Shown: positions 492-17,722, counted from the stretch's first letter. The stretch is 36,933 nt of DNA from Nitrospirae bacterium GWC2_57_9 (GCA_001805085.1 MHEA01000034.1:1-36933); one strand, 5' to 3'. Notes: generated from the sequence alone by a model not told the origin. Numbers and translations are program-made.

Positions 492-1235
492 TCAAAGGTT
501 TCCTTTCGCCTTGATGAACTCCCGGTACAGCTTCGCAATGAAGCGGACCTTGATCCCCTTGGGGCAGACCGCTTCGCATTCATAATGGTTGCTGCAGTTG
601 CCGAAGCCCTGTTTCAACATCTCTTCGGTCATGACACAGACCCTGCTGCCCGCCTCGATCCGCCCCTGAGGCAGCATGGCAAGGTGGGAGACCTTGGCCG
701 CGGTGAACAGCATGGCCGAGCCGTTCGGGCAGGCAGCGATGCAGGCTCCGCATCCGATGCATTCGGCAGCATCCATGGCTGCATCGGCATCGCGCTTCGC
801 TATCAGGACCGCGTTGCCGTCAGGTACGCCTCCGGTATGCACCGAAATGTATCCGCCCGATTCGATGATCTTCTCCATGGCTGTCCTGTCCACGATCAGG
901 TCCTTGATGACCGGGAAGGCCCGGGCACGGAAGGGTTCTATATAGAGAGTATCGCCGTCCTTGAAGTGCCGCATGTGCAGCTGGCAGACCGTCGTTTTCT
1001 TTCTCGGTCCGTGGGCCACGCCGTTCACGACCTGGCCGCACATGCCGCAGATGCCTTCCCGGCAGTCACTGTCGAAGGAGATCGGGTCGTCGCCTTTCTT
1101 GACCAACCCCTCGTTCACGATGTCCAGCATTTCGAGAAAGGACACGTCCCGGGAGATGTCCCTGGCCTCGTATTGGACGAGACGGCCCTTGTCGTTTCGG
1201 TCCTCCTGGCGCCAGACGTATAATGTTAGATTCAT
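492..1235 (-). CDS. sdhB: Succinate dehydrogenase / fumarate reductase iron-sulfur subunit
   Basis: Track ORF 492..1304. Its first 23 codons read through the intergenic repeat, so the start is moved to ATG 1235 ([10 protein letters not shown]...). Three Fe-S Cys clusters are visible: [22 protein letters not shown] and [12 protein letters not shown]. It lies directly downstream of sdhA. Confidence 0.9.
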
Positions 1236-1247
1236 GGAACAACCTTT

Positions 1248-1362
1248 CAAATTCCAAATGGCAAATTCCAAGCTCCAAATAATATCCAAGCACCAATGAT
1301 CCAAGTTTAGAAATTGGAATTTCGAGCTTGGTGCTTATTTGGAATTTAGTGCTTGTTATTTG
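1248..1362. repeat. AT-rich CCAAAT/ATTTGG long imperfect palindrome (family A, copy 1), sdhA-sdhB intercistronic
   Basis: The left arm caaattccaaatggcaaattccaagctccaaataatatccaagcaccaa faces the right arm ttggtgcttatttggaatttagtgcttgttatttg. An inner hairpin is tccaa-gtttagaaa-ttgga. The element fills most of the 139-nt spacer 1236-1374. Confidence 0.8.
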
Positions 1363-1374
1363 TTGCTAGTTTTA

Positions 1375-3288
<1,914 letters not shown>

Positions 3289-3293
3289 GCCTT

Positions 3294-3427
3294 AGCACCA
3301 AATTCCAAATTGCAAGCACCAAAATCCAAATAAATACCAATTTCCAAAAAACAAAATGGGAAACGTTTTGAATTTGACAGTTGAGATTTAGAAATTATTT
3401 GAGATTTGGGATTTGAACTTTGGAATT
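3294..3427. repeat. Family A palindrome, copy 2, sdhC-sdhA intercistronic
   Basis: The left arm agcaccaaattccaaattgcaagcaccaaaatccaaataaataccaatttccaaaaaacaaaa faces the right arm ttttgaatttgacagttgagatttagaaattatttgagatttgggatttgaactttggaatt. The arms are roughly 70 percent complementary by eye, with the centre at tgggaaacg. The spacer 3289-3427 is again exactly 139 nt. Confidence 0.8.
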
Positions 3428-4099
3428 TCATTTTAAGATTCCCATTAAAATGCTGACCGGTATTGCTGCGTACATCAGGAACAGCACGACCGATATCGCC
3501 ATCCCGGTCCTTACCACGACCGGCAGCGTCCTGTCATTGTTCAACCCTTCCGTCTGGATGGAACTCTCTATTCCGTGATACAAATGAAGCCCCAATCCGA
3601 GCACGCCTACGACGTACAAGGCTGCGATCCCGGCGCGCTGAAAGCTCCCGACCACCATCGTCAGCACATCGGGCCGGCCAAGCGCATCGGGATGAGCGGT
3701 CGCCGCAATGCCGGGTTCGATCACCTGGAAGGTGAAGTGCAGGAGGTGGAATATCAGGAAGAGAGCGATGAGCAGTCCGCTCCAGACCATGGTCCTTCCG
3801 GCAAGGGATGCGCTGCGGTAGCGCGTCAGGGCGTAGGTTTCCGGCTTTGCTTTTCTGTTCTCCAGTTTCAATATGATGCCGTACCAGGTGTGGAGGAAGA
3901 CGGAAATGAGGAGGAGCGTCCGGGAAGACCAGAGAATGATGGTATAAGGCCAGTGGCGCAGGCCTTCGGCATAGGCATTGATGGCCCCGGCGAAGATGGT
4001 GTAATTGCCGAGAACATGGGCGATGACGTAGAGGATCATGAACTGGCCGGTCACGGCCATCATGAGCTTTCGTCCGACTGTGGAAGTGGGTAGCAGCAA
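3428..4099 (-). CDS. sdhC: Succinate dehydrogenase / fumarate reductase cytochrome b membrane anchor (single large subunit type)
   Basis: 223-aa protein that looks five-TM, with conserved His residues in the helices (HVLGN, FLHTWYG, HLLHF, HLYHG). It lies immediately upstream of sdhA on the same strand. The N-terminus STVGRKLMMAVTG resembles b558-type anchors. The start is apparently TTG. Confidence 0.8.
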   Translation of the reverse strand: MLLPTSTVGRKLMMAVTGQFMILYVIAHVLGNYTIFAGAINAYAEGLRHWPYTIILWSSRTLLLISVFLHTWYGIILKLENRKAKPETYALTRYRSASLAGRTMVWSGLLIALFLIFHLLHFTFQVIEPGIAATAHPDALGRPDVLTMVVGSFQRAGIAALYVVGVLGLGLHLYHGIESSIQTEGLNNDRTLPVVVRTGMAISVVLFLMYAAIPVSILMGILK

Positions 4100-4116
4100 T
4101 TTTTTAACCCTTGAGA

Positions 4117-4156
4117 ATAAATTCGAAATTGAAATTGTTTCGGATTTAGAAATTTG
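4117..4156. repeat. Family A palindrome, short copy 3, fumC-sdhC spacer
   Basis: aataaattcgaaattgaaattgtttcggatttagaaattt: the left arm aaattcgaaattgaaa faces the right arm tttcggatttagaaattt, within the 60-nt spacer 4100-4159. Confidence 0.6.
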
Positions 4157-4159
4157 TGC

Positions 4160-5563
4160 TCAGGATTTGCCGTCCTCTCCGATTCCGCCCTCAGTCATTT
4201 TCCTCGGGTCGAGCAGCTTGTCCAGTTCGTCCCTCGACAGGCCCGTCATCTCCGCGGCAACGTCCTTGAGCGACCGGCCTTCGGCGTAGGCCCTCTTTGC
4301 GATCCGGGCGGCCTTGTCATAGCCGATCACGGGGTTGAGCGCCGTGACCAGGATCGGGTTCCTGTCCAGCAGCGCCGTGATGCGTTCCTTGTTCACGGTG
4401 AACCCTGCTATGGCCCTATCGGCAAGCAGACGCGCGGCATTCCCCAGGATCGTGATGGACTGGAGCAGGTTGTGGCCGATCACGGGCAGCATCACATTCA
4501 GTTGAAAGTTCCCCTGCTGGTTCGCGACCGTGATAGCTGCGTCGTTCCCGGTCACCTGGGCAGCGACCATCATCATCATTTCGCACATGACCGGGTTCAC
4601 TTTCCCGGGCATGATGCTTGATCCGGGCTGGAGCGAGGGCAGCGCGACTTCGCCCAGGCCCGCGATCGGTCCGCTGTTCATCCAGCGCAGATCGTTCGCC
4701 ATCTTCATGAACGATGAGGCGGTGGCTTTCAACTGCCCCGAAAGCTCGACGGCGGCATCCATCACCGCCTGGGCCGCAAAGTGGTTGTCCGCTTCGACAA
4801 AGGGCAGCTTCGTGCGTCCGGCAAGCCTGCTTGCCACGATCCTTCCGAAGTCTTTTGCGGCATTGATGCCGGTGCCGACGGCGGTCCCGCCGATGGCGAG
4901 TTTGGCAAGACGCGGCAGGCTCGACTCGATCCGTTCGACGGCCTGCTGCGCCTGGTATGCCCATCCGCCGATCTCCTGGCCCAGCGTGACCGGCATGGCG
5001 TCCATCAGGTGCGTGCGGCCTGTTTTGACTATATCATGGAACTCCGCCGCACGTTTTTTTAGCATATCCTGAAGGTGTTTAAACGCGGGGATAAGGACTT
5101 CCGTTACCTCGATATAGGCGCTTACATGGATCGTGGCGGGGATCACATCGTTCGAGGACTGGCCCATGTTAACATGATTGTTCGGATGGACCCCGGCGTT
5201 CCGATCCAGGAGGAGCTGGTTGGCGCGGTTCGCGATAACCTCATTGGCATTCATGTTCGTCGAGGTGCCGGACCCGGTCTGGAAGATATCGAGCGGGAAC
5301 TGGTCGTCCCATTTGCCGTCGGCAACTTCCAGTGCCGCCTGGTGGATCGCCTGGGCGATCGTCGCATCGAGCAGTCCCAGCCCCGCGTTGACCTCTGCGG
5401 CAACGGCCTTGATCAGGCCCAGCGCGCGGATGAAGGACCGGGGAAAACGGATGCCGCTCACGGGAAAGTTCTCCACGGCGCGCTGCGTCTGTGCCCCGTA
5501 CAAGGCATCGGCCGGGACCTTGATCTCTCCGAGGGAATCTTTTTCGATACGGAAGTTTTCCAT
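4160..5563 (-). CDS. fumC: Class II fumarate hydratase
   Basis: 467 aa with the GSSIMPGKVNP signature of the fumarase/aspartase family. The N-terminus SLGEIKVPADALYGAQTQRAVENF looks like FumC rather than AspA. The TCA gene context supports the call. Confidence 0.88.
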   Translation of the reverse strand: MENFRIEKDSLGEIKVPADALYGAQTQRAVENFPVSGIRFPRSFIRALGLIKAVAAEVNAGLGLLDATIAQAIHQAALEVADGKWDDQFPLDIFQTGSGTSTNMNANEVIANRANQLLLDRNAGVHPNNHVNMGQSSNDVIPATIHVSAYIEVTEVLIPAFKHLQDMLKKRAAEFHDIVKTGRTHLMDAMPVTLGQEIGGWAYQAQQAVERIESSLPRLAKLAIGGTAVGTGINAAKDFGRIVASRLAGRTKLPFVEADNHFAAQAVMDAAVELSGQLKATASSFMKMANDLRWMNSGPIAGLGEVALPSLQPGSSIMPGKVNPVMCEMMMMVAAQVTGNDAAITVANQQGNFQLNVMLPVIGHNLLQSITILGNAARLLADRAIAGFTVNKERITALLDRNPILVTALNPVIGYDKAARIAKRAYAEGRSLKDVAAEMTGLSRDELDKLLDPRKMTEGGIGEDGKS

Positions 5564-5698: not shown

Positions 5699-5850
5699 GA
5701 CATACAATAGGGCGAATATAGCCTCAATTATACCTGCTCTCTTTCCGGTTTGCATCGTCTTTTTTAAAGAAAGAAGACCTATTCAGGCGCGGCAATCCAT
5801 TGACCAAAGCAGGAATAGACCTTATAATAATGAAAGCAAAGGAGCACACA

Positions 5851-7275
5851 ATGAACAACCCCGTCAAATACGTCTGCAACCCCAGCCCCAGCTACAGCAT
5901 AACCATCCGGGCAGAGATCGAGAACCGGATCGGCATGTTCGCGAAGATCGCCACGGCGATCAGCAGCGCCGGCGGCGATATGGGGGCTGTGGACATCGTG
6001 CGCGTGGAGAAGGGCAAGATCGTCCGGGACATCACGGCGAACGCCCGCGACGAAGACCATGAAAAGGCCATAGTCCGCGCGATCAGGACGGTATCGGGGG
6101 TGAAGGTACTGCGCGTGATGGACAGAACCTTTACCGCGCACGAGGGCGGAAAGATCGAAATAAGGAGCAAGTTGCCGGTGCGGGACAGCACGGACCTCTC
6201 CAAGGTGTATACTCCCGGCGTGGCCCGGGTCTGCATGGACATCCATCAGAACAAACAGCATGCCTACCGCTACACGATCAAGGGCAATGCCGTGGCAGTG
6301 GTGTCCGACGGCACGGCCGTCCTCGGCCTGGGGAATATCGGACCGGAAGCGGCGCTGCCGGTCATGGAGGGCAAGGCGATGATCTTCAAGGAGTTCGCCG
6401 GGATCGATGCTTTTCCGATAGTGCTTTCCACCACGAACGTGGACGAGATCGTGGCCGCGGTCAAGGCGATCTCGCCCGGCCTGGGCGGGATCAACCTGGA
6501 GGACATCTCGGCCCCACGCTGCTTCGAGGTGGAGGCGCGGCTCAGGAAACTGCTGGATATCCCGGTGTTCCATGACGATCAGCACGGGACGGCCGTGGTC
6601 GTCCTGGCGGCTCTCATCAATGTTGCCCGGCTGATGAAACGGGACCTGAAAAAATTCAAATGCGTGGTGGTTGGCGCCGGAGCGGCAGGGTCGGCCATAA
6701 CAAGGATGCTCCTGTCCTCGGGGGTCAGGGACATCGTCGTTTGCGACCGCAAGGGCATCCTTTCCCCAGGGCTGAAGGGAGCGGGGAACGCGAACAAGCG
6801 CGAGCTGGCGAGATTGACGAACCCGCGCAAGGTCAAAGGCGGCATACCGGAGGCGATGAAGGGGGCCGAGGTGTTCATCGGCGTATCAGGCCCGAACGTG
6901 ATCACCGGCGACGACGTCCGGAAAATGGCCGACGATCGCATCGTCTTCGCCCTCGCCAATCCCAATTCCGAGATCGCGCCCGAGGAGGCGCTGCCCCTGG
7001 TCCGGATCATGGCAACCGGCCGGTCCGACTATCCGAACCAGATCAACAACATGCTCTGCTTTCCCGGCCTGTTCCGGGGCCTGCTCGACGTGAAGGCGAC
7101 CGGCGTGAACGAAGCGGTGAAGCTCGCGGCCGCCCGCGCGATCGCGCATTGCGTGGACAAAGAAGAACTGCACGAGGACTATATCATTCCGAGCATTTTC
7201 GATCGGAAGGTGGTAGCGTCGGTGGCCGATGCCGTTGCCGAAGCGGCGCGGAAGACGGGACTGGCCAGGAAGTAG
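5851..7275 (+). CDS. NAD(P)-dependent malic enzyme with N-terminal ACT domain
   Basis: Track ORF 5800..7275. The start is moved to ATG 5851, which sits behind AAAGGAG. An ACT-like N-terminus (ITIRAEIENRIGMFAKIATAISSAGGDMGAVDIV) is followed by the malic enzyme core (DLSKVYTPGVARVC, VAVVSDGTAVLGLGNIGP, FHDDQHGTAVV, VVVGAGAAG). Confidence 0.88.
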   Translation: MNNPVKYVCNPSPSYSITIRAEIENRIGMFAKIATAISSAGGDMGAVDIVRVEKGKIVRDITANARDEDHEKAIVRAIRTVSGVKVLRVMDRTFTAHEGGKIEIRSKLPVRDSTDLSKVYTPGVARVCMDIHQNKQHAYRYTIKGNAVAVVSDGTAVLGLGNIGPEAALPVMEGKAMIFKEFAGIDAFPIVLSTTNVDEIVAAVKAISPGLGGINLEDISAPRCFEVEARLRKLLDIPVFHDDQHGTAVVVLAALINVARLMKRDLKKFKCVVVGAGAAGSAITRMLLSSGVRDIVVCDRKGILSPGLKGAGNANKRELARLTNPRKVKGGIPEAMKGAEVFIGVSGPNVITGDDVRKMADDRIVFALANPNSEIAPEEALPLVRIMATGRSDYPNQINNMLCFPGLFRGLLDVKATGVNEAVKLAAARAIAHCVDKEELHEDYIIPSIFDRKVVASVADAVAEAARKTGLARK

Positions 7276-7418: not shown

Positions 7419-8690
7419 ATGAACCGCAACCACGAACGGCTCCACCGCGACGAGAAAGACCTCCGCAGCCTGGCCATGACGGAGTTGCAGAATATCTATG
7501 CCGGTCTCGGCCTCACCCGGGAAGAGCTCGATCTGCTGTCCCTGCCCCGCCGTTCCTTCACTGTCAGTTTTCCCGTAAAGATGACCTCGGGCAGGACACA
7601 GATGTACACGGGCTACCGCGTGCAGCACAACGACGCCCGGGGCCCGGCCAAGGGGGGGATCCGCTTCCACCACGAGCTGGATGAAGAGCACGCCACGGAG
7701 CTTGCGCTCCTGATGGCGCTCAAATGCGCGGTCGTGAACATCCCCTTCGGCGGCGCCAAGGGCGGAGTTGCCGTCAACCCGCTGGAGCTTTCGCGCATCG
7801 ATCTCGAGAACGTCACCCGTGGCTACATCAGGGCCATCGCGGACCATATCGGTCCCTTTAAGGACATTCCCGCGCCCGATGTCTATACCGATGAGCAGAT
7901 CATGGCCTGGATCCTGGACGAGTACGAACGGATCAAACGGGAGCATGTTCCCGCCGTGGTCACGGGCAAGCCTCCGGAACTGGGAGGCATTGCCGTGCGC
8001 CGGTACTCCACCGCGCTGGGCGGCGTTCATGTGCTGGAGCAGGCCTTGAAAGAGCGGGGAATGGCCGGCTCCGGTCTGCGGGTGGCGGTACAGGGGTTCG
8101 GCAATGTGGGGGAGCATACCGCGCGCATCCTGCATGAACGGGGGTACCGGGTCGTTGCCGTGAGCGATGTGAATGGAGGCATCCAGGACCCTGCAGGTCT
8201 CGATATCCCTGCGGTGAGGAAACACCGCGATGCCGCAGGAAGCGTTGCCGGGTATGCCGGCGCCAGGGCGATCACCAACGCCGGGCTGCTTGCTGCCGAA
8301 TGCGACGTGCTTATCCCCGCGGCTCTCTCCAACCAGGTCGACAAGAGCAATGCCCGCGAGGTGAAGGCAACGGTCGTGCTTGAAATGGCAAACGCGCCGC
8401 TCACGGCCGAGGCCGACGAGATCCTGTTCCACAGGGACGTGACGGTCATTCCCGATATCCTGGCCAATGCCGGCGGAGTGGTCGTCAGCTACTTCGAATG
8501 GAGCCAGAACCTGAGCAACGATACCTGGCCGGAAGACAAAGTGCTGGCCCGGCTCGCCCTGACCATGGCAGCGGCCTATGCCGATGTGCTCGCCCTGTGC
8601 AGCAACGGCCGGTGCCGGATGCGTCAGGCGGCTTATGAGCTCGCGGTCAAGCGGATCCTGCAGGCAGAGCGCCTGCGCGGCAATCTGTAA
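7419..8690 (+). CDS. gdh: Glutamate dehydrogenase (Glu/Leu/Phe/Val dehydrogenase family)
   Basis: 423 aa with KGGIRFHHE...NIPFGGAKGGVAVNP (catalytic Lys region) and the Rossmann motif VAVQGFGNVG. Confidence 0.88.
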   Translation: MNRNHERLHRDEKDLRSLAMTELQNIYAGLGLTREELDLLSLPRRSFTVSFPVKMTSGRTQMYTGYRVQHNDARGPAKGGIRFHHELDEEHATELALLMALKCAVVNIPFGGAKGGVAVNPLELSRIDLENVTRGYIRAIADHIGPFKDIPAPDVYTDEQIMAWILDEYERIKREHVPAVVTGKPPELGGIAVRRYSTALGGVHVLEQALKERGMAGSGLRVAVQGFGNVGEHTARILHERGYRVVAVSDVNGGIQDPAGLDIPAVRKHRDAAGSVAGYAGARAITNAGLLAAECDVLIPAALSNQVDKSNAREVKATVVLEMANAPLTAEADEILFHRDVTVIPDILANAGGVVVSYFEWSQNLSNDTWPEDKVLARLALTMAAAYADVLALCSNGRCRMRQAAYELAVKRILQAERLRGNL

Positions 8691-10147: not shown

Positions 10148-10513
10148 ATGAAGACCAAAAAAAACCTTATCATAGTCGGCGACCGGGTCCTCCTCGATCC
10201 CGACGAACGCATGGATAAAACACCCTCCGGTCTTTACCTTCCCCCGACGGTCAAGGAAAAGGAAAAGATCATGGGCGGTCATGTGGTCAAGACCGGTCCC
10301 GGATATGCCATACCCGACGCGGCCCCGAGCGAATCGTGGACCACGAGCAAGAAGGAAGTGAAGTACATCCCGCTCCAGGCAGCGGAGGGCGATTATGCCA
10401 TCTTCCTGAAGGACGCGGCCATGGAGATCGAGTTCGAGGAGAAGAAGTACCTGATCGTTCCGCATTCCGCCATCCTTGCCCTGGTCAGAACCGAGCTGTC
10501 CGACGAAGGGTGA
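10148..10513 (+). CDS. GroES/Cpn10-like co-chaperonin family protein (stand-alone, no groEL nearby)
   Basis: 121 aa. IIVGDRVLLDPDE...KTPSGLYLP...GHVVKTGPG follows the Cpn10 pattern with an extended C-terminal half. Confidence 0.65.
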   Translation: MKTKKNLIIVGDRVLLDPDERMDKTPSGLYLPPTVKEKEKIMGGHVVKTGPGYAIPDAAPSESWTTSKKEVKYIPLQAAEGDYAIFLKDAAMEIEFEEKKYLIVPHSAILALVRTELSDEG

Positions 10514-10535
10514 TTCGAGTTCGGAGTGCGGAATT
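10514..10535. repeat. Family B copy 2: 22-mer TTCGAGTTCGGAGTGCGGAATT directly after a stop codon
   Basis: It begins on the base after TGA 10511-10513 and is identical to 15673-15694. It continues as ...cggaatgc (a gaattcggaat unit). Confidence 0.8.
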
Positions 10536-10716: not shown

Positions 10717-12663
10717 ATGGCAAAGAACGTAACCCATAAGATACTGGAAGCCCATCTTGTCGAAGGCGAACTGGTCCCGGGCAAAGAGATCGGGATCCGG
10801 ATCGATCATACGCTGCTGCAGGATGCAACGGGCACGGTGGCCATGCTCGAGTTCGAGTCACTCGGCATCGACAAGGTGAGGACCGAGCTTTCGGCCCAGT
10901 ACGTCGACCATAACCTTCTTCAGACAGACAACAAGAACGCCGACGATCATAAGTTCCTTCAGACGGCGGCGGCGCGGTACGGCATCCATTTCAGCATGCC
11001 CGGCAACGGCGTTTCCCACCAGGTGCACATGGAGCGCTTCGGCGCTCCGGGCAAGACGCTCCTGGGCGCCGACAGCCATACTCCGGGAGCAGCCGGGGTC
11101 TCGATGCTCGGCATCGGGGCGGGCGGACTGGATGTCGCCCTGGCCATGGCCGGGTATCCCTATTATCTTTCCTGCCCGAACGTGCTCGGCGTAAGACTGA
11201 CCGGCAGGCTGCCCGATTGGGTGAGCGCCAAGGACGTGATCCTGGAGATGCTGCGGCGCTACGATGTCAAAGGCTGCATCGGCAAGATCATTGAGTACTA
11301 CGGCCCCGGCGTTGCGTCACTTTCAGCGACGGACCGCGAGACCATCGGCAACATGGGGACCGAGACCGGCGCGACCACCTCGATCTTTCCTTCCGACAAG
11401 AGGACCCGTGAATATCTGATCGCCCAGGGCAGGGGAGAGGCCTGGGTCCCGCTCGCTGCCGACGAAGGCGCGACCTACGACGAATACGCGGAGATCGACC
11501 TCTCGAAGCTCGAACCGCTCATCGCGAAGCCCTCGTCCCCGGGCAATGTCGTTGCGGTCCGGGAAGCGGCCGGAACGAAAGTGGACCAGGTGATCGTGGG
11601 CAGCAGCGTCAATTCCTCCTTCCGGGACCTGATGGTCGCCGCCAAAATGCTGGAAGGCCGGAGGGTCCATCCCAACACTTCGTTCCATGTGAATCCCGGA
11701 AGCAGGCAGGTGCTCGAGAACGTGTACCACGCAGGAGGATTGCTTGCGTTCCTCACGACCGGCGCGCGGGTGCATGAGCCCGGGTGCCAGGGCTGCATCG
11801 GCATGGGCCAGGCACCAGGCACGAACGAGGTGAGCCTCCGGACATTCCCGCGCAATTTCCCGGGCAGATCAGGCACGAAGGACGACAAGGTCTATCTCTG
11901 TTCGCCCGAGACGGCAACCGCGGCAGGCCTCACGGGCGTGATCACCGACCCCCGGGAGCTGGGAAAGGAAATGGCCTATCCCAGGATCGAGGACCCGAAG
12001 GAGTACAAGATCGATTCCCGGTCCATCATCTTTCCGTCGCCGGAGCTTTCCAGGACCGAGATCGTGCGCGGTCCGAACATACGTCCGCTGCCGTCCCTCG
12101 AACCCCTGCCGGATAGGCTCACTGCCGAAGTGGTGCTGAAAGTCAGCGACAATATCTCGACGGACGGGATCATGCCCGCGGGAAACCGGGTGCTGCCGCT
12201 TCGGTCCAATATCGAAGCGTTGAGCGCATTCGTCTTTTCCCAGATAGCACCGGATTTTGCAAAGGACTGCAAGGCGGTCCAGGGACCGGTTGCGGTCGTG
12301 GGCGGCGAGAACTACGGCCAGGGATCGAGCAGGGAGCATGCGGCCCTGGCGCCCCGCTATCTCGGCGTCCGGGTCAAGATCGCCAAGAGCTTCGCCCGCA
12401 TCCATAAGTCCAACCTCTGCAACTTCGGGATCCTTCCGCTCACGTTCAGGAATCCCGTGGACTACGAGCTGTTGAACAAGGGCAGCAGGATAGTGCTTCC
12501 TGATCTGCGTAAACGGATCGAGCGGGGAGACCGGGAGATCCCGGTCGAGCTGGCCGGCCAGACGATCATTACCCTGCTGGACGTGTCTGACCGGCAGCGA
12601 AAGCACCTGCTCGCAGGCGGGACGCTGAACTACGTGAAGGAACAGCTGATGGTGCAGGTATAA
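10717..12663 (+). CDS. acn: Aconitate hydratase (short, roughly 650-aa type)
   Basis: Motifs seen are GADSHTPGAAG, the CQGCIGMG Fe-S ligand region and GENYGQGSSREHAA of the swivel domain. Confidence 0.9.
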   Translation: MAKNVTHKILEAHLVEGELVPGKEIGIRIDHTLLQDATGTVAMLEFESLGIDKVRTELSAQYVDHNLLQTDNKNADDHKFLQTAAARYGIHFSMPGNGVSHQVHMERFGAPGKTLLGADSHTPGAAGVSMLGIGAGGLDVALAMAGYPYYLSCPNVLGVRLTGRLPDWVSAKDVILEMLRRYDVKGCIGKIIEYYGPGVASLSATDRETIGNMGTETGATTSIFPSDKRTREYLIAQGRGEAWVPLAADEGATYDEYAEIDLSKLEPLIAKPSSPGNVVAVREAAGTKVDQVIVGSSVNSSFRDLMVAAKMLEGRRVHPNTSFHVNPGSRQVLENVYHAGGLLAFLTTGARVHEPGCQGCIGMGQAPGTNEVSLRTFPRNFPGRSGTKDDKVYLCSPETATAAGLTGVITDPRELGKEMAYPRIEDPKEYKIDSRSIIFPSPELSRTEIVRGPNIRPLPSLEPLPDRLTAEVVLKVSDNISTDGIMPAGNRVLPLRSNIEALSAFVFSQIAPDFAKDCKAVQGPVAVVGGENYGQGSSREHAALAPRYLGVRVKIAKSFARIHKSNLCNFGILPLTFRNPVDYELLNKGSRIVLPDLRKRIERGDREIPVELAGQTIITLLDVSDRQRKHLLAGGTLNYVKEQLMVQV

Positions 12664-12744: not shown

Positions 12745-12764
12745 TCATGGATAGAAGGTCACCT

Positions 12765-13988
12765 ATGAATGCCAAAACTCAAAGAAGAGACACTACAGAA
12801 AAAGCTGAAGAGAAGACGAAAAACATCGGCTTGCGCGGCGTGACGGTTGCGGATACGAAGATCTCCGACGTGGACGGCGAGAACGGCATCCTGATCTACC
12901 GGGGGTACCGGATCGAGGACCTGGCGAAGAATTCGGCCTTTGAGGAGACTGCTTACCTGCTCCTGCACGACGACCTGCCGACCGATGAACAGTTGAAGGA
13001 CTTCAAGCAGCGCCTCGCAAAGGCCCGGCAGGTTCCCACGTTCATACTGAATGCGCTCAAGACCTGGCCCCATGGCGCGAATCCCATGGACGCGCTCCAG
13101 GCGTCCGTGCCGCTCCTTGCCATGGCGGACCCGGAACTGGAAGTGGAGACGCGGGAGGCAAACGTGGCGAAAGCCACTCGTCTCATCTCCCGGATCCCCG
13201 GTGTTGTTGCCGCCTGGCAGCGTATCCGTCATGACCAGGAGCCGATACCGGCTGATGAGCGGCTGAGCCATGCCGAGAATTTCCTGTGGCAGCTGACCGG
13301 GAAAAAGCCAGATGCGGAAATTGCCATGGATCTGGATATTGCGCTGATCCTGCATGCGGACCATTCCTTCAATGCTTCGACGTTCGCCTGCCGCGAGGTG
13401 GTGTCAACGCAGGCGCACATGTACGCCGCGGTGGCCGCGGGCGTGGGCGCGCTTTCCGGAAGCCTGCACGGCGGCGCCAATGCGGAGGTCATGAAGATGC
13501 TGCAGGACGTCCAGAACGAGAAGGATCTGGCCGAATGGGTCCGGTCGCAGCTCGGATCGGGTAAAAAGATCATGGGCATGGGCCATGCCGTATACAAAAC
13601 GAACGATCCCCGTGCCCAGTTCCTGAAGGAGATGGGCGGACGCCTGGGTCGAAAGCTCGGCCAGGAGCAGTGGCATCGGATGCTGAGGGAGATTGAAGCG
13701 GCGGCATTGGCCGAGTTCGAGAAGCGGGGAAAGACGACGATCAAGCCCAATGTGGATTTCTACAGCGCGCCCGTCTACCACCTCATGGGCATTCCCGGCG
13801 ACCTGATGACCCCCGTCTTTGCCATTGCCCGCATCGCCGGCTGGACGGCTCATATCATCGAGGAGAAGTTCGGCGAGGCCCAGGGCAAGCCGGCGCTGTA
13901 CCGGCCGTCCTCCGAATACATAGGCAACTACTGCGGCAGGACCGGGTGCGTGTATAAGCCGAAGGAGGAGAGGGCAAGCACCAAATAA
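12765..13988 (+). CDS. gltA: Citrate synthase
   Basis: Track ORF 12747..13988. ATG 12765 has a better SD (AGAAGG 7 nt upstream), but 12747 is also possible. Motifs seen are LILHADHSFNAST and the GMGHAVYKTNDPR citrate synthase signature. Confidence 0.9.
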   Translation: MNAKTQRRDTTEKAEEKTKNIGLRGVTVADTKISDVDGENGILIYRGYRIEDLAKNSAFEETAYLLLHDDLPTDEQLKDFKQRLAKARQVPTFILNALKTWPHGANPMDALQASVPLLAMADPELEVETREANVAKATRLISRIPGVVAAWQRIRHDQEPIPADERLSHAENFLWQLTGKKPDAEIAMDLDIALILHADHSFNASTFACREVVSTQAHMYAAVAAGVGALSGSLHGGANAEVMKMLQDVQNEKDLAEWVRSQLGSGKKIMGMGHAVYKTNDPRAQFLKEMGGRLGRKLGQEQWHRMLREIEAAALAEFEKRGKTTIKPNVDFYSAPVYHLMGIPGDLMTPVFAIARIAGWTAHIIEEKFGEAQGKPALYRPSSEYIGNYCGRTGCVYKPKEERASTK

Positions 13989-14160: not shown

Positions 14161-14260
14161 CGGGAGGCGCATGGCGACCAAGAGAACAGTGAAAAGTCGG
14201 AAGGCCAAAGCAGGGAATGCCGAGGCAAAAGCCACGTCCTCCCCCAAGGGGGTGAACAGT

Positions 14261-15670
14261 ATGAAGGTCAGTTCATTAAAGTCTTTTATTGAAAAGCGAA
14301 AGAGCATTCAGTCCATCAATCCCTATACCGAAGAGGTGATGAAAGAGATTCCGCTCATGACCCGCGACGATATCGCTGCTCAGGCCGAACGTTCCCGCGA
14401 GGCATTCAAAAGCTGGAGCAGCAGGCCCTTGTCCGAGAGGACGGGGCTCGTCAAGAAGCTTGGAGACCATCTCCGGGCGGACAAACGGAAATACGCAGAG
14501 CTGATCACCAAGGAGATGGGCAAACCGATCAAGGAGTCCCTGGCCGAGATCGAGAAATGCGCCTGGCTCTGCGATTATTATGCGGAGAACGCAGGGAACT
14601 TCCTGAAGCCGGAAGAGATCAGGACCGAGAACAAAAAGAGCATGGTCCTGTTCCAGCCCCTGGGCGTGGCGCTCGCGATCATGCCCTGGAACTTCCCCTA
14701 CTGGCAGGCGTTCCGGTTCGGCATACCGGCAGTCACGGCCGGCAATGTCATTCTGCTGAAGCATGCATCCAATGTCCCACAGACCGCGCTTTCCATCGAG
14801 GACGCCTTCAGGGCGGCCGGGTTCCCGGAGGACGTGTTCAAGACCCTGATCATCGATGTGAAGGAAGCGCTGAACTTGATCGACACTGACCAGGTGGATG
14901 CTGTTTCCCTCACCGGGAGCAACGCAGCCGGGGAGCAGGTGGGCGCCCATGCAGGAGCGAAGATCAAGAAACTTGTGCTCGAACTGGGCGGTTCCGACCC
15001 CTTCATCGTGCTCGATGACGCGGACGTGGAGAAGGCCGGCAGAACGGCGGCCAACGCGCGCATGATCAACGCGGGCCAGAGCTGCATCGCGGCCAAACGG
15101 TTCATTGTGATGGACAAGGCGGCGGAGGAGTTCAGGACGCATTTCATCGCGCGGCTGAAGGAGCTGAAGGTCGGCGATCCCATGGACGAAAGCACGGATG
15201 TGGGTCCGCTGGCGCGGCGTGACCTGCTCGAGGCGCTGAACAGGCAGCTGCAGGACGCAAAGAAGAGCGGGGCAGAGATCGTCCAGATCGGCAACGGCGC
15301 CGGCAGCAAAAAGGGGTTCTTCTTCTCGCCCGTGGCTGTCTTTAATCCCAGGCTCGACAGCAAGGTCATGAAGGAAGAGGTATTCGGACCGATCGCGCCG
15401 GTCGTCGTGGTGAAGAGCGAGGACGAAGCCGTCAGGATCGCGAACGACACCGAGTTCGGCCTGGGGGCGTCCATCTGGAGCAGGAACATCGACCGGGCAG
15501 AGAAACTGGCTGCCAGGGTCGAGTCCGGGTTCGTGGCGATCAACGACTCCGTGAAATCCGATCCGCGCCTGCCCTTCGGCGGCGTAAAGAAGTCGGGCAT
15601 CGGCAGGGAGCTGTCGGAGTACGGGTTGAAGGAGTTCGTGAATATCAAGACCGTGGTGGTGAAAGAATAG
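14261..15670 (+). CDS. NAD(P)+-dependent aldehyde dehydrogenase, succinate-semialdehyde dehydrogenase-like
   Basis: Track ORF 14171..15670. ATG 14261 (MKVSSLKSF...) follows AAGGGGGTG and gives a typical length of about 469 aa. ALDH catalytic motifs are LELGGSDP (Glu) and NAGQSCIAAKRF (Cys). Substrate assignment is by resemblance and context only. Confidence 0.8.
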   Translation: MKVSSLKSFIEKRKSIQSINPYTEEVMKEIPLMTRDDIAAQAERSREAFKSWSSRPLSERTGLVKKLGDHLRADKRKYAELITKEMGKPIKESLAEIEKCAWLCDYYAENAGNFLKPEEIRTENKKSMVLFQPLGVALAIMPWNFPYWQAFRFGIPAVTAGNVILLKHASNVPQTALSIEDAFRAAGFPEDVFKTLIIDVKEALNLIDTDQVDAVSLTGSNAAGEQVGAHAGAKIKKLVLELGGSDPFIVLDDADVEKAGRTAANARMINAGQSCIAAKRFIVMDKAAEEFRTHFIARLKELKVGDPMDESTDVGPLARRDLLEALNRQLQDAKKSGAEIVQIGNGAGSKKGFFFSPVAVFNPRLDSKVMKEEVFGPIAPVVVVKSEDEAVRIANDTEFGLGASIWSRNIDRAEKLAARVESGFVAINDSVKSDPRLPFGGVKKSGIGRELSEYGLKEFVNIKTVVVKE

Positions 15671-15672
15671 AC

Positions 15673-15694
15673 TTCGAGTTCGGAGTGCGGAATT
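15673..15694. repeat. Family B copy 3: the same 22-mer, 2 nt after a stop codon
   Basis: ttcgagttcggagtgcggaatt, 2 nt after TAG 15668-15670. Confidence 0.8.
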
Positions 15695-15720
15695 AAGAAA
15701 AGGCATGAACCGCGAAGCAT

Positions 15721-16060
15721 TGTCTCACAGGTCGCCACGGAGCCACGAAGAGAAAAAATTAAGGCGAAATGCTTTGTCTCGCGCAAAGCCGCAAAGACGC
15801 AAAGAAGGAGCGAACAACTGCTTATTCTTGTTAGCCCGTAACAGAAGCAGGGGATTTAGCGATTTTGTTTCTTTCGAATTTGAGGGCTGCATTAAAAGAT
15901 TGAATTCCGGCTTTCATAAGGACTTCTTCGTGGCTTTAGTGAGAGACCGGGGTTGTTTTTTGCATTGTTTTCCCTTTGCGACTTTGCGGCTTTGCGCGAG
16001 ACCGTTTTTGACTTGTTCTTTGTTTTTCTCCGGGTTCTCGTGCCTCTGCAAGAGACCGGG
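15721..16060. mobile_element. MITE-like non-coding element with nested inverted repeats (family C, copy 1)
   Basis: The 29-bp inverted repeats gtctcgcgcaaagccgcaaagacgcaaag (15776-15804) and ctttgcgactttgcggctttgcgcgagac (15974-16002) are 28/29 complementary. The outer arms ...gccacggagccacgaagagaaaaa / tttttctccgggttctcgtgcc are also inverted. There is no ORF with protein character inside. Confidence 0.65.
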
Positions 16061-16087
16061 TGTATATTTTCCCCGTTAGGAGAGTGA

Positions 16088-17722
16088 ATGAAAGCATCTG
16101 ACCTGTTCGTGAAGCAGCTGGAAGAAGAAGGCGTGAAATACATCTTCGGCCTGCCCGGCGAGGAGAACCTGGACCTGCTCGAATCGCTCCGGAGTTCGGA
16201 GATCAAGGTTGTCATCACCCGGCATGAACAGGCAGCTGCCTTCATGGCAGCCACCTACGGACGTCTCACGGGAAAGGCGGGCGTCTGCTTCTCGACGCTC
16301 GGGCCCGGCGCAACGAACCTGGTGACCGGCGTTGCCCATGCGCAGTTGATCGGCGCTCCGCTTATCTCCATCTCGGGTCAGAAAGCTCTCCGGGAGAACC
16401 GGCAGGCGCGCTTCCAGCTGATCGACATCGTGAGCATGATGCGGCCGGTCACCAAGGATGCCCTTACGATCGTCGATCCCGGCATGATCCCGACCGTGCT
16501 CCGGAACGCCTTCAAGCTGGCCCAGGCTGAACGGCCGGGCGCGGTCCATATCGAACTGCCCGAGGACGTGGCCGAGACCGAGACGGTCGCTGAGGTCCAG
16601 TCGCGGGGCCTCGTGCGCAGGCCTGCCCCGGACCCCAAGGCGCTCCACCGGGCGGCTGATATGATCAGCAAGGCCCGGAACCCGCTCATCATCCTTTCCT
16701 CGGGCGCCAACCGGAACCTGATCACCAAGCAGCTCATGCAGTTCATCCACCAGACGGGTATCTTTGCCGTGCACACCCAGATGGGCAAGGGCGTGGTGAG
16801 CGACGACTCGCAGTACAGCCTTTTTGCCACGGGCATTCACCGCCGCGACTACGTCAACTGCGGCATCGACCGGGCCGACGTGATCATCACGATCGGCTAC
16901 AATATCGTCGAGTATCCGCCCTATGTCTGGAACCGGGACCTGACCAAGAAGATCATCAACATCGATTTCGTGGAGGCGGAGACGGACAAGTACTACAACC
17001 CGGACATCGAGGTGATCGGCGATATCTCCTGCGCTCTTCGCGAGCTGGGAGAGCTGGTCCCGGCGCGTAAGAACGGCGAGGTGTTCAAGAATACCCGGGC
17101 CTTCCTGGAAAAAAAGCTCGCCCTGGACTACAAAAAACAGTATCCGCCCTCGCCCATGGAGATCGTCTCGCAGGTGCGGAGCGTGCTCGCACCCGAGGAC
17201 ATCCTGACCCTGGACAACGGCATCTACAAGTTGTGGTTCGCGCGGCTGTACAAAACGTACAAGCCGAACACGTTCCTGCTGGACAACGCCCTGGCAACCA
17301 TGGGTGCGGGCATGCCTGCAGGGATCGCGGCCAAGCTGGTTAGACCCGACCGGAACGTGCTGGCCGTCGTGGGCGACGGCGGGTTCATGATGAACTCACA
17401 GGAGATCGAGACAGCGCTCCGCTATTCCATCCCGCTCGTGGTCCTCGTGCTGAACGACAACGGCTTCGGTTTCATCAAGTGGGAGCAGCAGGCCAAGGGG
17501 TTCGGGAGCTTCGCCCTGGACACGGGCAATCCCGATTTTGTGAAGTACGCCCAGAGCTACGGGGCCATCGGTATGAAGGTGAACCAGGGCGACGATCTCG
17601 CAGCCGTGCTGCGGGAGGCCTTCGCGAAAAAGAAGTTTGTGCTCGTGGAATGCCCCATCGACTATTCCCAGAACTACGAGACTTTTTCAAGAGAACTGGC
17701 CAGCATCGCCTGCGAGTTCTAG
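16088..17722 (+). CDS. Acetolactate synthase-like thiamine-diphosphate enzyme (candidate 2-oxoacid decarboxylase)
   Basis: 544 aa with an N-terminal Pyr domain (FGLPGEENLDLLESL...RHEQAAAFMAATYGRLTGKAGVCFSTLGPGATNL) and the ThDP motif GDGGFMMNSQEIETALRYSIPLVVLVLNDNGFG. No small ilvN-type subunit gene is adjacent. Confidence 0.85.
   Translation: MKASDLFVKQLEEEGVKYIFGLPGEENLDLLESLRSSEIKVVITRHEQAAAFMAATYGRLTGKAGVCFSTLGPGATNLVTGVAHAQLIGAPLISISGQKALRENRQARFQLIDIVSMMRPVTKDALTIVDPGMIPTVLRNAFKLAQAERPGAVHIELPEDVAETETVAEVQSRGLVRRPAPDPKALHRAADMISKARNPLIILSSGANRNLITKQLMQFIHQTGIFAVHTQMGKGVVSDDSQYSLFATGIHRRDYVNCGIDRADVIITIGYNIVEYPPYVWNRDLTKKIINIDFVEAETDKYYNPDIEVIGDISCALRELGELVPARKNGEVFKNTRAFLEKKLALDYKKQYPPSPMEIVSQVRSVLAPEDILTLDNGIYKLWFARLYKTYKPNTFLLDNALATMGAGMPAGIAAKLVRPDRNVLAVVGDGGFMMNSQEIETALRYSIPLVVLVLNDNGFGFIKWEQQAKGFGSFALDTGNPDFVKYAQSYGAIGMKVNQGDDLAAVLREAFAKKKFVLVECPIDYSQNYETFSRELASIACEF

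Follow-up and report, generated by a model that had tools for sequence, protein, structure and literature searches.

Gene organization of the locus

The window analysed here is contig C34 of the metagenome-assembled genome (MAG) of Nitrospirae bacterium GWC2_57_9 (MHEA01000034.1), taken at its full length of 36,933 nt. On its plus strand the gene of an aldehyde dehydrogenase (ALDH) resembling succinic semialdehyde dehydrogenases (SSADHs) is followed by the gene of a thiamine diphosphate (ThDP) dependent enzyme, and the two stand at the end of a string of tricarboxylic acid (TCA) cycle genes opened by aconitase (acn) and citrate synthase (CS, gltA). Zhang and Bryant reportedly identified A2770 and A2771 of Synechococcus sp. 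PCC 7002 in 2011 as the OgdA/SsaD bypass; Sll1981 of Synechocystis is presumably also a cyanobacterial enzyme of the OgdA type. The initial annotation had read the pair in the window in this sense, as a possible 2-oxoglutarate decarboxylase/SSADH bypass at the end of a TCA cluster. Our analysis supports this reading: the pair probably constitutes a CoA-independent bypass from 2-oxoglutarate to succinate, and the checks run on clustering of the ThDP enzyme, on 2-oxoglutarate:ferredoxin oxidoreductase (OGOR) and sucCD, and on synteny gave no refutation.

The MAG comprises 253 contigs with a total of 3.35 Mb and is rated 83.5% complete. Public DNA runs with matching sequence are groundwater metagenomes; no matching RNA runs were listed among the public runs. 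The nearest named homologs come from MAGs of Nitrospirota or of "Nitrospiraceae bacterium". Pfam and NCBIfam scans confirmed the gene list of the initial annotation. The string and its spacer are composed as follows:

10717–12663, plus strand: aconitate hydratase of the PRK07229 type (NF005558, 949 bits), first gene of the acn-CS-ALDH-ThDP string
12747–13988, plus strand: citrate synthase (PF00285, 428.6 bits; TIGR01800, 423.7 bits), directly 5' of the ALDH gene and on the same strand
14171–15670, plus strand: ALDH (PF00171, 465.6 bits), a putative SsaD-like SSADH of the NADP type; 499 aa, or 469 aa when read from the ATG at 14261
15671–16087, no strand: spacer of 417 nt with two inverted copies of a dispersed repeat of ~35 nt
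16088–17722, plus strand: OgdA-like ThDP enzyme of 544 aa (PF02776, PF00205, PF02775), candidate 2-oxoglutarate decarboxylase

The gene that comes next after the ThDP enzyme is SUI1/YciH. Scans of the window found no ilvN, ilvC or budA beside the ThDP gene, and the description of its product as a three-domain, stand-alone enzyme of 544 aa resembling acetolactate synthase (ALS) was confirmed.

The aldehyde dehydrogenase

As far as can be judged from sequence, the ALDH is the strongest single argument for the bypass. Its best solved relatives are four entries of the SSADH of Synechococcus sp. PCC 7002 (3VZ1-3 and 4IT9, 415–419 bits), with 3VZ1/4IT9 as the best single match at 419 bits. E. coli Sad and Salmonella YneI, enterobacterial SSADHs of the same ALDH subfamily, come second and third (391 and 382 bits), followed by a streptococcal SSADH. 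Entry 3VZ3 is the A2771 protein with NADP+ and substrate, and the functional residues are named there: Cys262 is the nucleophile and Glu228 the general base, Arg139, Trp135 and Ser419 bind the carboxylate of the substrate, and Lys154 and Ser157 are determinants for NADP (PMC7510979). We read the corresponding positions from the structure-search alignment, verified them in the sequence and took the roles of the residues from the same paper. All of them are kept. In the numbering of the 469-aa form the catalytic residues Cys262, Glu228 and Asn131 correspond to C275, E241 and N144, the carboxylate-binding residues Arg139, Trp135 and Ser419 to R152, W148 and S433, and the NADP determinants Lys154 and Ser157 to K167 and S170.

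The best NCBIfam model for the ALDH is NF006915, an equivalog of NADP-dependent SSADH, which was hit with 501 bits and thus below its cut-off of 730. The partner ALDHs of Acaryochloris, Haloarcula and Rokubacteria show the same ranking of models and also stay below the cut-off (610–663 bits); this includes the Acaryochloris ortholog of the assayed SSADH (663 vs 730 bits). Since these partners fall short as well, the cut-off appears to be too strict for this ALDH subgroup, and the low score would be no argument against an SSADH. By every available sequence test the enzyme classifies as an SSADH, and the assignment made in the initial annotation is borne out down to the substrate-binding residues.

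Family and phylogeny of the ThDP enzyme

The ThDP enzyme scored 789 bits against NF006187 (cut-off 509), the model hit best by the cyanobacterial enzymes, on which the orthologs of Acaryochloris, Nostoc and Merismopediaceae reach 865–875 bits. Against both AlsS models (460 vs 510 and 430 vs 551 bits) and against the IlvB model TIGR00118 (373 vs 538 bits) it remained below the cut-offs. Sequence identity was 43–46% to the cyanobacterial proteins and 31–35% to AlsS, for which the comparison set consisted of genes located beside budA on plasmids. The characterised group was represented by proteins from cyanobacterial loci, found by scanning species-representative genomes with a Methanoperedens-like lead sequence; relatives from the window's own family were obtained by a separate genome search. 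For the assayed Microcystis enzyme 17 residues are listed, of which the cyanobacterial proteins have 16 or 17; three of these proteins match in exact register.

Phylogenetic analysis by maximum likelihood (ML) was carried out carefully on 58 sequences, and a quick tree of 69 sequences agrees with it. The NF006187 clade (support 98/93) includes the window enzyme as well as the cyanobacterial decarboxylases. The AlsS proteins linked to budA form a clade of their own (100/99) and IlvB is the outgroup. The ThDP enzyme does not cluster with true acetolactate synthases, an outcome that the initial annotation had named as refuting: it is set apart both from AlsS and from the IlvB of its own genome. 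The NF006187 clade splits basally. One side holds the cyanobacterial clade (100/100) together with members of many other phyla; the other, comprising 16 rows (100/98), holds the window enzyme, its family, the proteins P0121, P0123 and P0122 and homologs from proteobacterial plasmids. Taking scores and tree together, the ThDP enzyme appears to be neither AlsS nor IlvB, and it does not fall inside the clade of the assayed decarboxylases.

For the active site we used an alignment anchored on a cyanobacterial row with 17 of 17 sites in register, with the numbering of MaKGD. The window enzyme retains all four residues assigned to cofactor binding and catalysis (Glu50, Met410, Asp435 and Asp462). 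Lys386 and Ala408, which mark the NF006187 clade against AlsS and IlvB, are also kept. At alignment position 471 both AlsS and IlvB have Gln, and at 408 so does AlsS, in contrast to Glu471 and Ala408 of the window enzyme; from AlsS/BudB it differs at the positions equivalent to 386, 408 and 471.

The public names of its homologs all read 'acetolactate synthase large subunit', and among solved chains the closest ones also bear the label acetolactate synthase (13bb_A, 397 bits; AlsS 4RJJ, 333 bits). This would favour a true ALS, or another carboligase, with no functional link to the ALDH. The three-domain ThDP fold, a similar length and the missing small subunit gene are indeed common to AlsS/BudB and the window enzyme, the superfamily is common to it and IlvB/IlvN, and the catalytic Glu and the GDG motif are shared with ALS and IlvB alike. 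However, the name given by NF006187 is also borne by the cyanobacterial orthologs of the assayed decarboxylase, as well as by the best matches of 871 plasmid records; for some of the family at least it is probably incorrect. Acetolactate decarboxylase was not found in the genome at its completeness of 83.5%. A complete set of IlvB (TIGR00118, 878 bits) and IlvN lies together on contig C171; therefore the ThDP enzyme is not needed for the synthesis of branched-chain amino acids. Chain 13bb_A was considered as a guide to the active site and set aside: it has Met at the position of the family's Lys386, its source is not stated and it gave no help.

Some further members of the family were noticed. 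Two family genomes hold a second NF006187-like paralog (G001:C60:44397-45998 and G006:C15:950754-952355) that is 45% identical to the window enzyme. In or near the family there are also two fusions: P0127 (677 aa, from a cluster of 16) joins the ThDP enzyme to a C-terminal cyclic-nucleotide-binding domain, and P0266 (691 aa) has an N-terminal FlK-type thioesterase.

Conservation of the gene pair

An ortholog with 68–82% identity is present in 20 of the 24 genomes of the window's family; the four genomes in which it was missed are 63–86% complete. The initial annotation had named lack of synteny in relatives as a point that would speak against the pair. We found the ALDH gene directly 5' of the ThDP gene in all 15 of the family loci that were fetched. 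Citrate synthase lies 5' of the ALDH gene in 13 and aconitase in 12 of these 15 loci, the latter having the full acn-CS-ALDH-ThDP string, which is kept over at least 12 genera-level groups.

Of 26 cyanobacterial loci, 20 have an SSADH-type ALDH gene directly 5' of the ThDP gene and in the same orientation. This order is shared by one locus of Rokubacteria and by a Haloarcula plasmid, where the ALDH is annotated as "NAD-dependent succinate-semialdehyde dehydrogenase". The ALDHs of the cyanobacterial, Rokubacteria and Haloarcula pairs are 46–50% identical to the ALDH of the window.

Many loci of other phyla show a different arrangement, with an ALDH of another type (25–34% identical) directly 3' of the ThDP gene. 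We observed this second type at loci L029, L031, L032, L041, L048, L052, L057, L063, L065, L074 and L088, from Pseudomonadota, Planctomycetota, Gemmatimonadota, Actinomycetota and Bacillota; its best model is a lactaldehyde-dehydrogenase, with scores below the cut-off. Natural fusions of a ThDP enzyme with an ALDH were found in P0122 (1016 aa, 53% identical, on a 128-kb contig) and P0177. Such fusions support the view that members of the family pass an aldehyde on to a dehydrogenase, as a decarboxylase would and a carboligase would not. As direct support for the exact pair of the window they were rejected: their ALDH halves are of the other type (25% and 31% identical to the window ALDH, respectively), and the aldehyde is not identified as succinic semialdehyde. 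In P0271, the nearest relative from outside the family, a gene on the same strand overlaps by 4 nt.

Genomic context and proposed function

The pair ends the acn-gltA-ALDH-ThDP string within a block of 18 kb that also holds fumC-sdhCAB, a malic enzyme and glutamate dehydrogenase (GDH). These additional genes are:

492–1304, minus strand: sdhB (NF005746)
1375–3288, minus strand: sdhA (NF005749)
3428–4099, minus strand: sdhC (TIGR02046)
4160–5563, minus strand: fumC (Lyase_1 and FumaraseC_C; TIGR00979 at 589 bits, below its cut-off of 664.75)
5800–7275, plus strand: malic enzyme with ACT domain (Pfam and NCBIfam scans)
7419–8690, plus strand: GDH (Pfam and NCBIfam scans)

Whole-genome profile searches gave no match on contig C34 for sucA, sucCD or OGOR, in agreement with the initial annotation of the window. 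In the genome as a whole sucA was not found, nor was it in any of the 31 genomes of the family; this search, over the present genome and 30 relatives, also covers a SucA-type gene of the mycobacterial class. Neither sucC nor sucD was found over its cut-off in this genome. Among the 31 family genomes sucC scores over its cut-off in five, and it was missed also in genomes rated 100% complete. The genome has an NADP isocitrate dehydrogenase (icd); isocitrate lyase and glutamate decarboxylase were not found in it. Weak sucC-like matches in open frames of 426–455 aa were considered as subunits of ATP-citrate lyase and rejected, the one of this genome being PurD. A search with PF16114 (ATP-citrate lyase) gave no match in the genome, and none in the control genomes.

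We propose the following scheme. The ThDP enzyme (16088–17722) would convert 2-oxoglutarate to succinic semialdehyde and CO2, and the ALDH (14171–15670) would oxidize succinic semialdehyde to succinate, probably with NADP+. The products of fumC-sdhC-sdhA-sdhB (492–5563, minus strand) would take up the succinate formed. The bypass would thereby fill a gap in the TCA cycle, since neither 2-oxoglutarate dehydrogenase nor succinyl-CoA synthetase was found for this one step in this genome and in most of its family. Gene identities, family membership, synteny, conserved residues and phyletic pattern are shown by our data; from these we infer 2-oxoglutarate as the substrate of the ThDP enzyme. The ALDH is the main support for this reading. 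An SSADH must be supplied with succinic semialdehyde, the search for glutamate decarboxylase was negative, and the neighbor that stays fixed throughout the family is a member of the one ThDP family known to form this aldehyde. The place of the pair behind acn-gltA, with fumC-sdhCAB in the same block, is in keeping with the TCA step that is otherwise missing.

Counterevidence and alternative explanations

A number of observations weigh against this assignment or against the bypass as the principal route. In a genome that is 83.5% complete absences are provisional. The genome-wide check found no sucA, and no sucC or sucD over cut-off, but it did find oxidoreductases: a 2-oxoacid:acceptor oxidoreductase of two subunits (661 and 352 bits) is encoded on contig C117, more 2-oxoacid:ferredoxin oxidoreductase paralogs, including an open frame of 1264 aa, lie elsewhere outside C34, and the two-subunit type occurs in 24 of the 31 family genomes. 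G007, G012 and G017, the three that were checked among the five genomes with sucC, also carry the pair, and the two are therefore not strictly complementary. In addition, a 700-aa ADP-forming acyl-CoA synthetase adjoins a gene of the CoA-transferase family on contig C175 (L011, L146). A ferredoxin-dependent, OGOR-based route to succinyl-CoA may therefore be available from these genes, although the enzyme that usually acts next was not found. The bypass may carry the main flux or operate in parallel with a ferredoxin oxidoreductase.

These genes are the basis of the alternative that fares best, according to which the pair has the proposed chemistry but serves as an auxiliary route, for example under iron limitation or oxygen stress or for NADPH supply, while the main flux passes through a ferredoxin oxidoreductase to succinyl-CoA and on through a CoA-transferase or the ADP-forming acyl-CoA synthetase. 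A modified cycle of this kind has been documented for Desulfurella (PMC9768450). Bypass mutants of Synechococcus PCC 7002 are viable; in this organism the bypass genes are named ogdA and ssaD, and sucCD is present (PMC5160925). On the other hand, the oxidoreductases may act on a 2-oxoacid other than 2-oxoglutarate. The CoA-transferase of C175 was rejected as a succinyl-CoA:acetate CoA-transferase, with 101 vs 500 bits and far below every curated cut-off. Furthermore it is the bypass genes, not the oxidoreductase, that are built into the TCA gene string. We regard an auxiliary role as a minority possibility, which overlaps with the bypass reading because the chemistry is the same. Two gene fusions were observed alongside these searches: the CoA-transferase-family gene on C175 has a C-terminal part resembling the acetyltransferase Pat, and contig C62 (L012) encodes an 874-aa fusion of a GNAT domain with an acyl-CoA synthetase.

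The remaining counterevidence concerns the ThDP enzyme. In the tree it is placed not with the assayed cyanobacterial enzymes but among the 16 rows of their sister clade, where we found no assayed member. Proteobacterial members on this side of the tree have no ALDH neighbor and occur in varied contexts. Seven of the eight predicted or mutated residues of the specificity pocket are changed with respect to MaKGD (Gln254 to His, Val382 to Asn, Ala384 to Ile, His385 to Tyr, Tyr465 to Phe, Leu467 to Phe and Lys471 to Glu), and of the eight only Lys386 is kept. The contacts of MaKGD with 2-oxoglutarate come from docking on a predicted model and not from a structure, and Lys471 is predicted to form a salt bridge to the distal carboxylate of 2-oxoglutarate (PMC10418658). 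In eight sequences of the family besides that of the window, position 471 is Lys in three and Glu in five; therefore no strict constraint acts on this position in the family. This variation weakens either the docking model or the assignment of 2-oxoglutarate as substrate. We consider the predicted pocket differences a real yet soft objection to a decarboxylase for 2-oxoglutarate.

A decarboxylase and dehydrogenase for another 2-oxoacid, for instance from 2-oxoadipate via glutarate semialdehyde to glutarate, or with a broad range, would accommodate the changed pocket and the uncharacterised sister clade; the TCA neighborhood would then be incidental. Members of the clade are also found beside a monooxygenase or a glutamate-synthase-like gene, or fused to the ALDH type that is 25% identical. 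Against this stand the partner ALDH, in which exactly those residues are retained that bind the C4 carboxylate of the substrate succinic semialdehyde in the structure from PCC 7002, the wide conservation of the acn-CS-ALDH-ThDP string, and the retention of Lys386 together with Ala408. We therefore consider another 2-oxoacid unlikely. In view of the scores, the tree and the gene context described above, a function as true acetolactate synthase or as some other carboligase is very improbable.

Spacer, repeats and start of the ALDH gene

The initial annotation had described the gap between the ALDH and ThDP genes as a single spacer resembling a miniature inverted-repeat transposable element. Instead it contains two inverted copies of a short dispersed repeat around a unique interior. 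The arms at 15776–15804 and 15974–16002 measure 29 nt each, are 97% complementary and lie 169 nt apart. Each arm has about 30 matches over the genome on many contigs, the repeat being ~35 nt long and rich in CGCAAAG, and the ~170 nt between the arms are unique in the genome. Because the arms recur about 30 times and the interior does not, the gap consists of dispersed palindromic repeats and not of one transposable element. In the 15 relatives the gap ranges from 17 to 440 nt; the long spacer is therefore specific to the lineage of the window. An identical 22-mer is located directly after the ALDH stop codon (15673–15694) and at 10514–10535, following the stop codon at 10511–10513. This 22-mer overlaps a repeat unit of the window of the type GAGTTCGGAGTG.

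The ALDH gene had been taken to start at 14261, yet the frame opens at the ATG at 14171. The resulting N-terminal extension (14171–14260) comprises 30 residues, is rich in Lys, Ala and Ser and is basic. In most of the 15 relatives a comparable basic stretch with a 'KGV..MK' motif at its end can be translated; the cyanobacterial ALDH has no such extension. Since the extension stays open and basic in most of these relatives, 14171 is the likelier start and the 499-aa form the likelier product.

Comparison with known systems and implications

A description of the bypass dates from 2011, and already then homologs had been recognised beyond the cyanobacteria, in methanogens and anaerobes (PMC12214013). 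The pair of the window resembles OgdA/SsaD of cyanobacteria in the NF006187 family of the ThDP enzyme, in the type of the ALDH, including its residues for substrate and cofactor, in the order of ALDH before ThDP gene and in the missing 2-oxoglutarate dehydrogenase. It differs from the cyanobacterial system in the sister-clade position of its ThDP enzyme with seven predicted pocket residues changed, in being joined to aconitase and citrate synthase and in its host, a non-phototrophic Nitrospirota bacterium from groundwater. In contrast to PCC 7002 with its sucCD, no succinyl-CoA synthetase was found in most of the window's family. The Sad/YneI SSADHs of enterobacteria act in the breakdown of GABA (gamma-aminobutyric acid) and putrescine and are not paired with a ThDP enzyme; a GABA route through glutamate decarboxylase has no counterpart among the genes found here. 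ThDP-dependent decarboxylation of 2-oxoglutarate is also known from the mycobacterial SucA-type decarboxylase (Rv1248c) and from MenD (PMC10418658). The reaction proposed here is alike, but the protein families are different from that of the window enzyme.

Literature searches on Nitrospira or Nitrospirota together with 2-oxoglutarate decarboxylase or SSADH found nothing relevant. We describe what is probably a known pathway in a new host, and the gain is incremental in this respect. New are the family-wide phyletic pattern, the unassayed sister clade with its changed pocket and the support for the ALDH at the level of single residues. The altered pocket of the sister clade offers a test of which residues set the specificity for 2-oxoglutarate.

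We tentatively put forward a more far-reaching view, in which the oxidative TCA cycle of this family of uncultured Nitrospirota would be constitutively free of CoA. As a fixed part of the core acn-gltA operon, the bypass would replace 2-oxoglutarate dehydrogenase and succinyl-CoA synthetase, and its ThDP enzyme would come from a deep, unassayed branch with a remodelled pocket (Asn-x-Ile-Tyr-Lys vs Val-x-Ala-His-Lys). If this is true, the bypass would be an ancient and widespread way of closing the cycle and not a cyanobacterial peculiarity. The assignment of the pair, if right, already has consequences: the name "acetolactate synthase large subunit" of NF006187 would be misleading for a large and phylogenetically wide family, and models of these groundwater Nitrospirota should include a complete oxidative TCA cycle, with NADPH instead of succinyl-CoA and ATP formed at this step.

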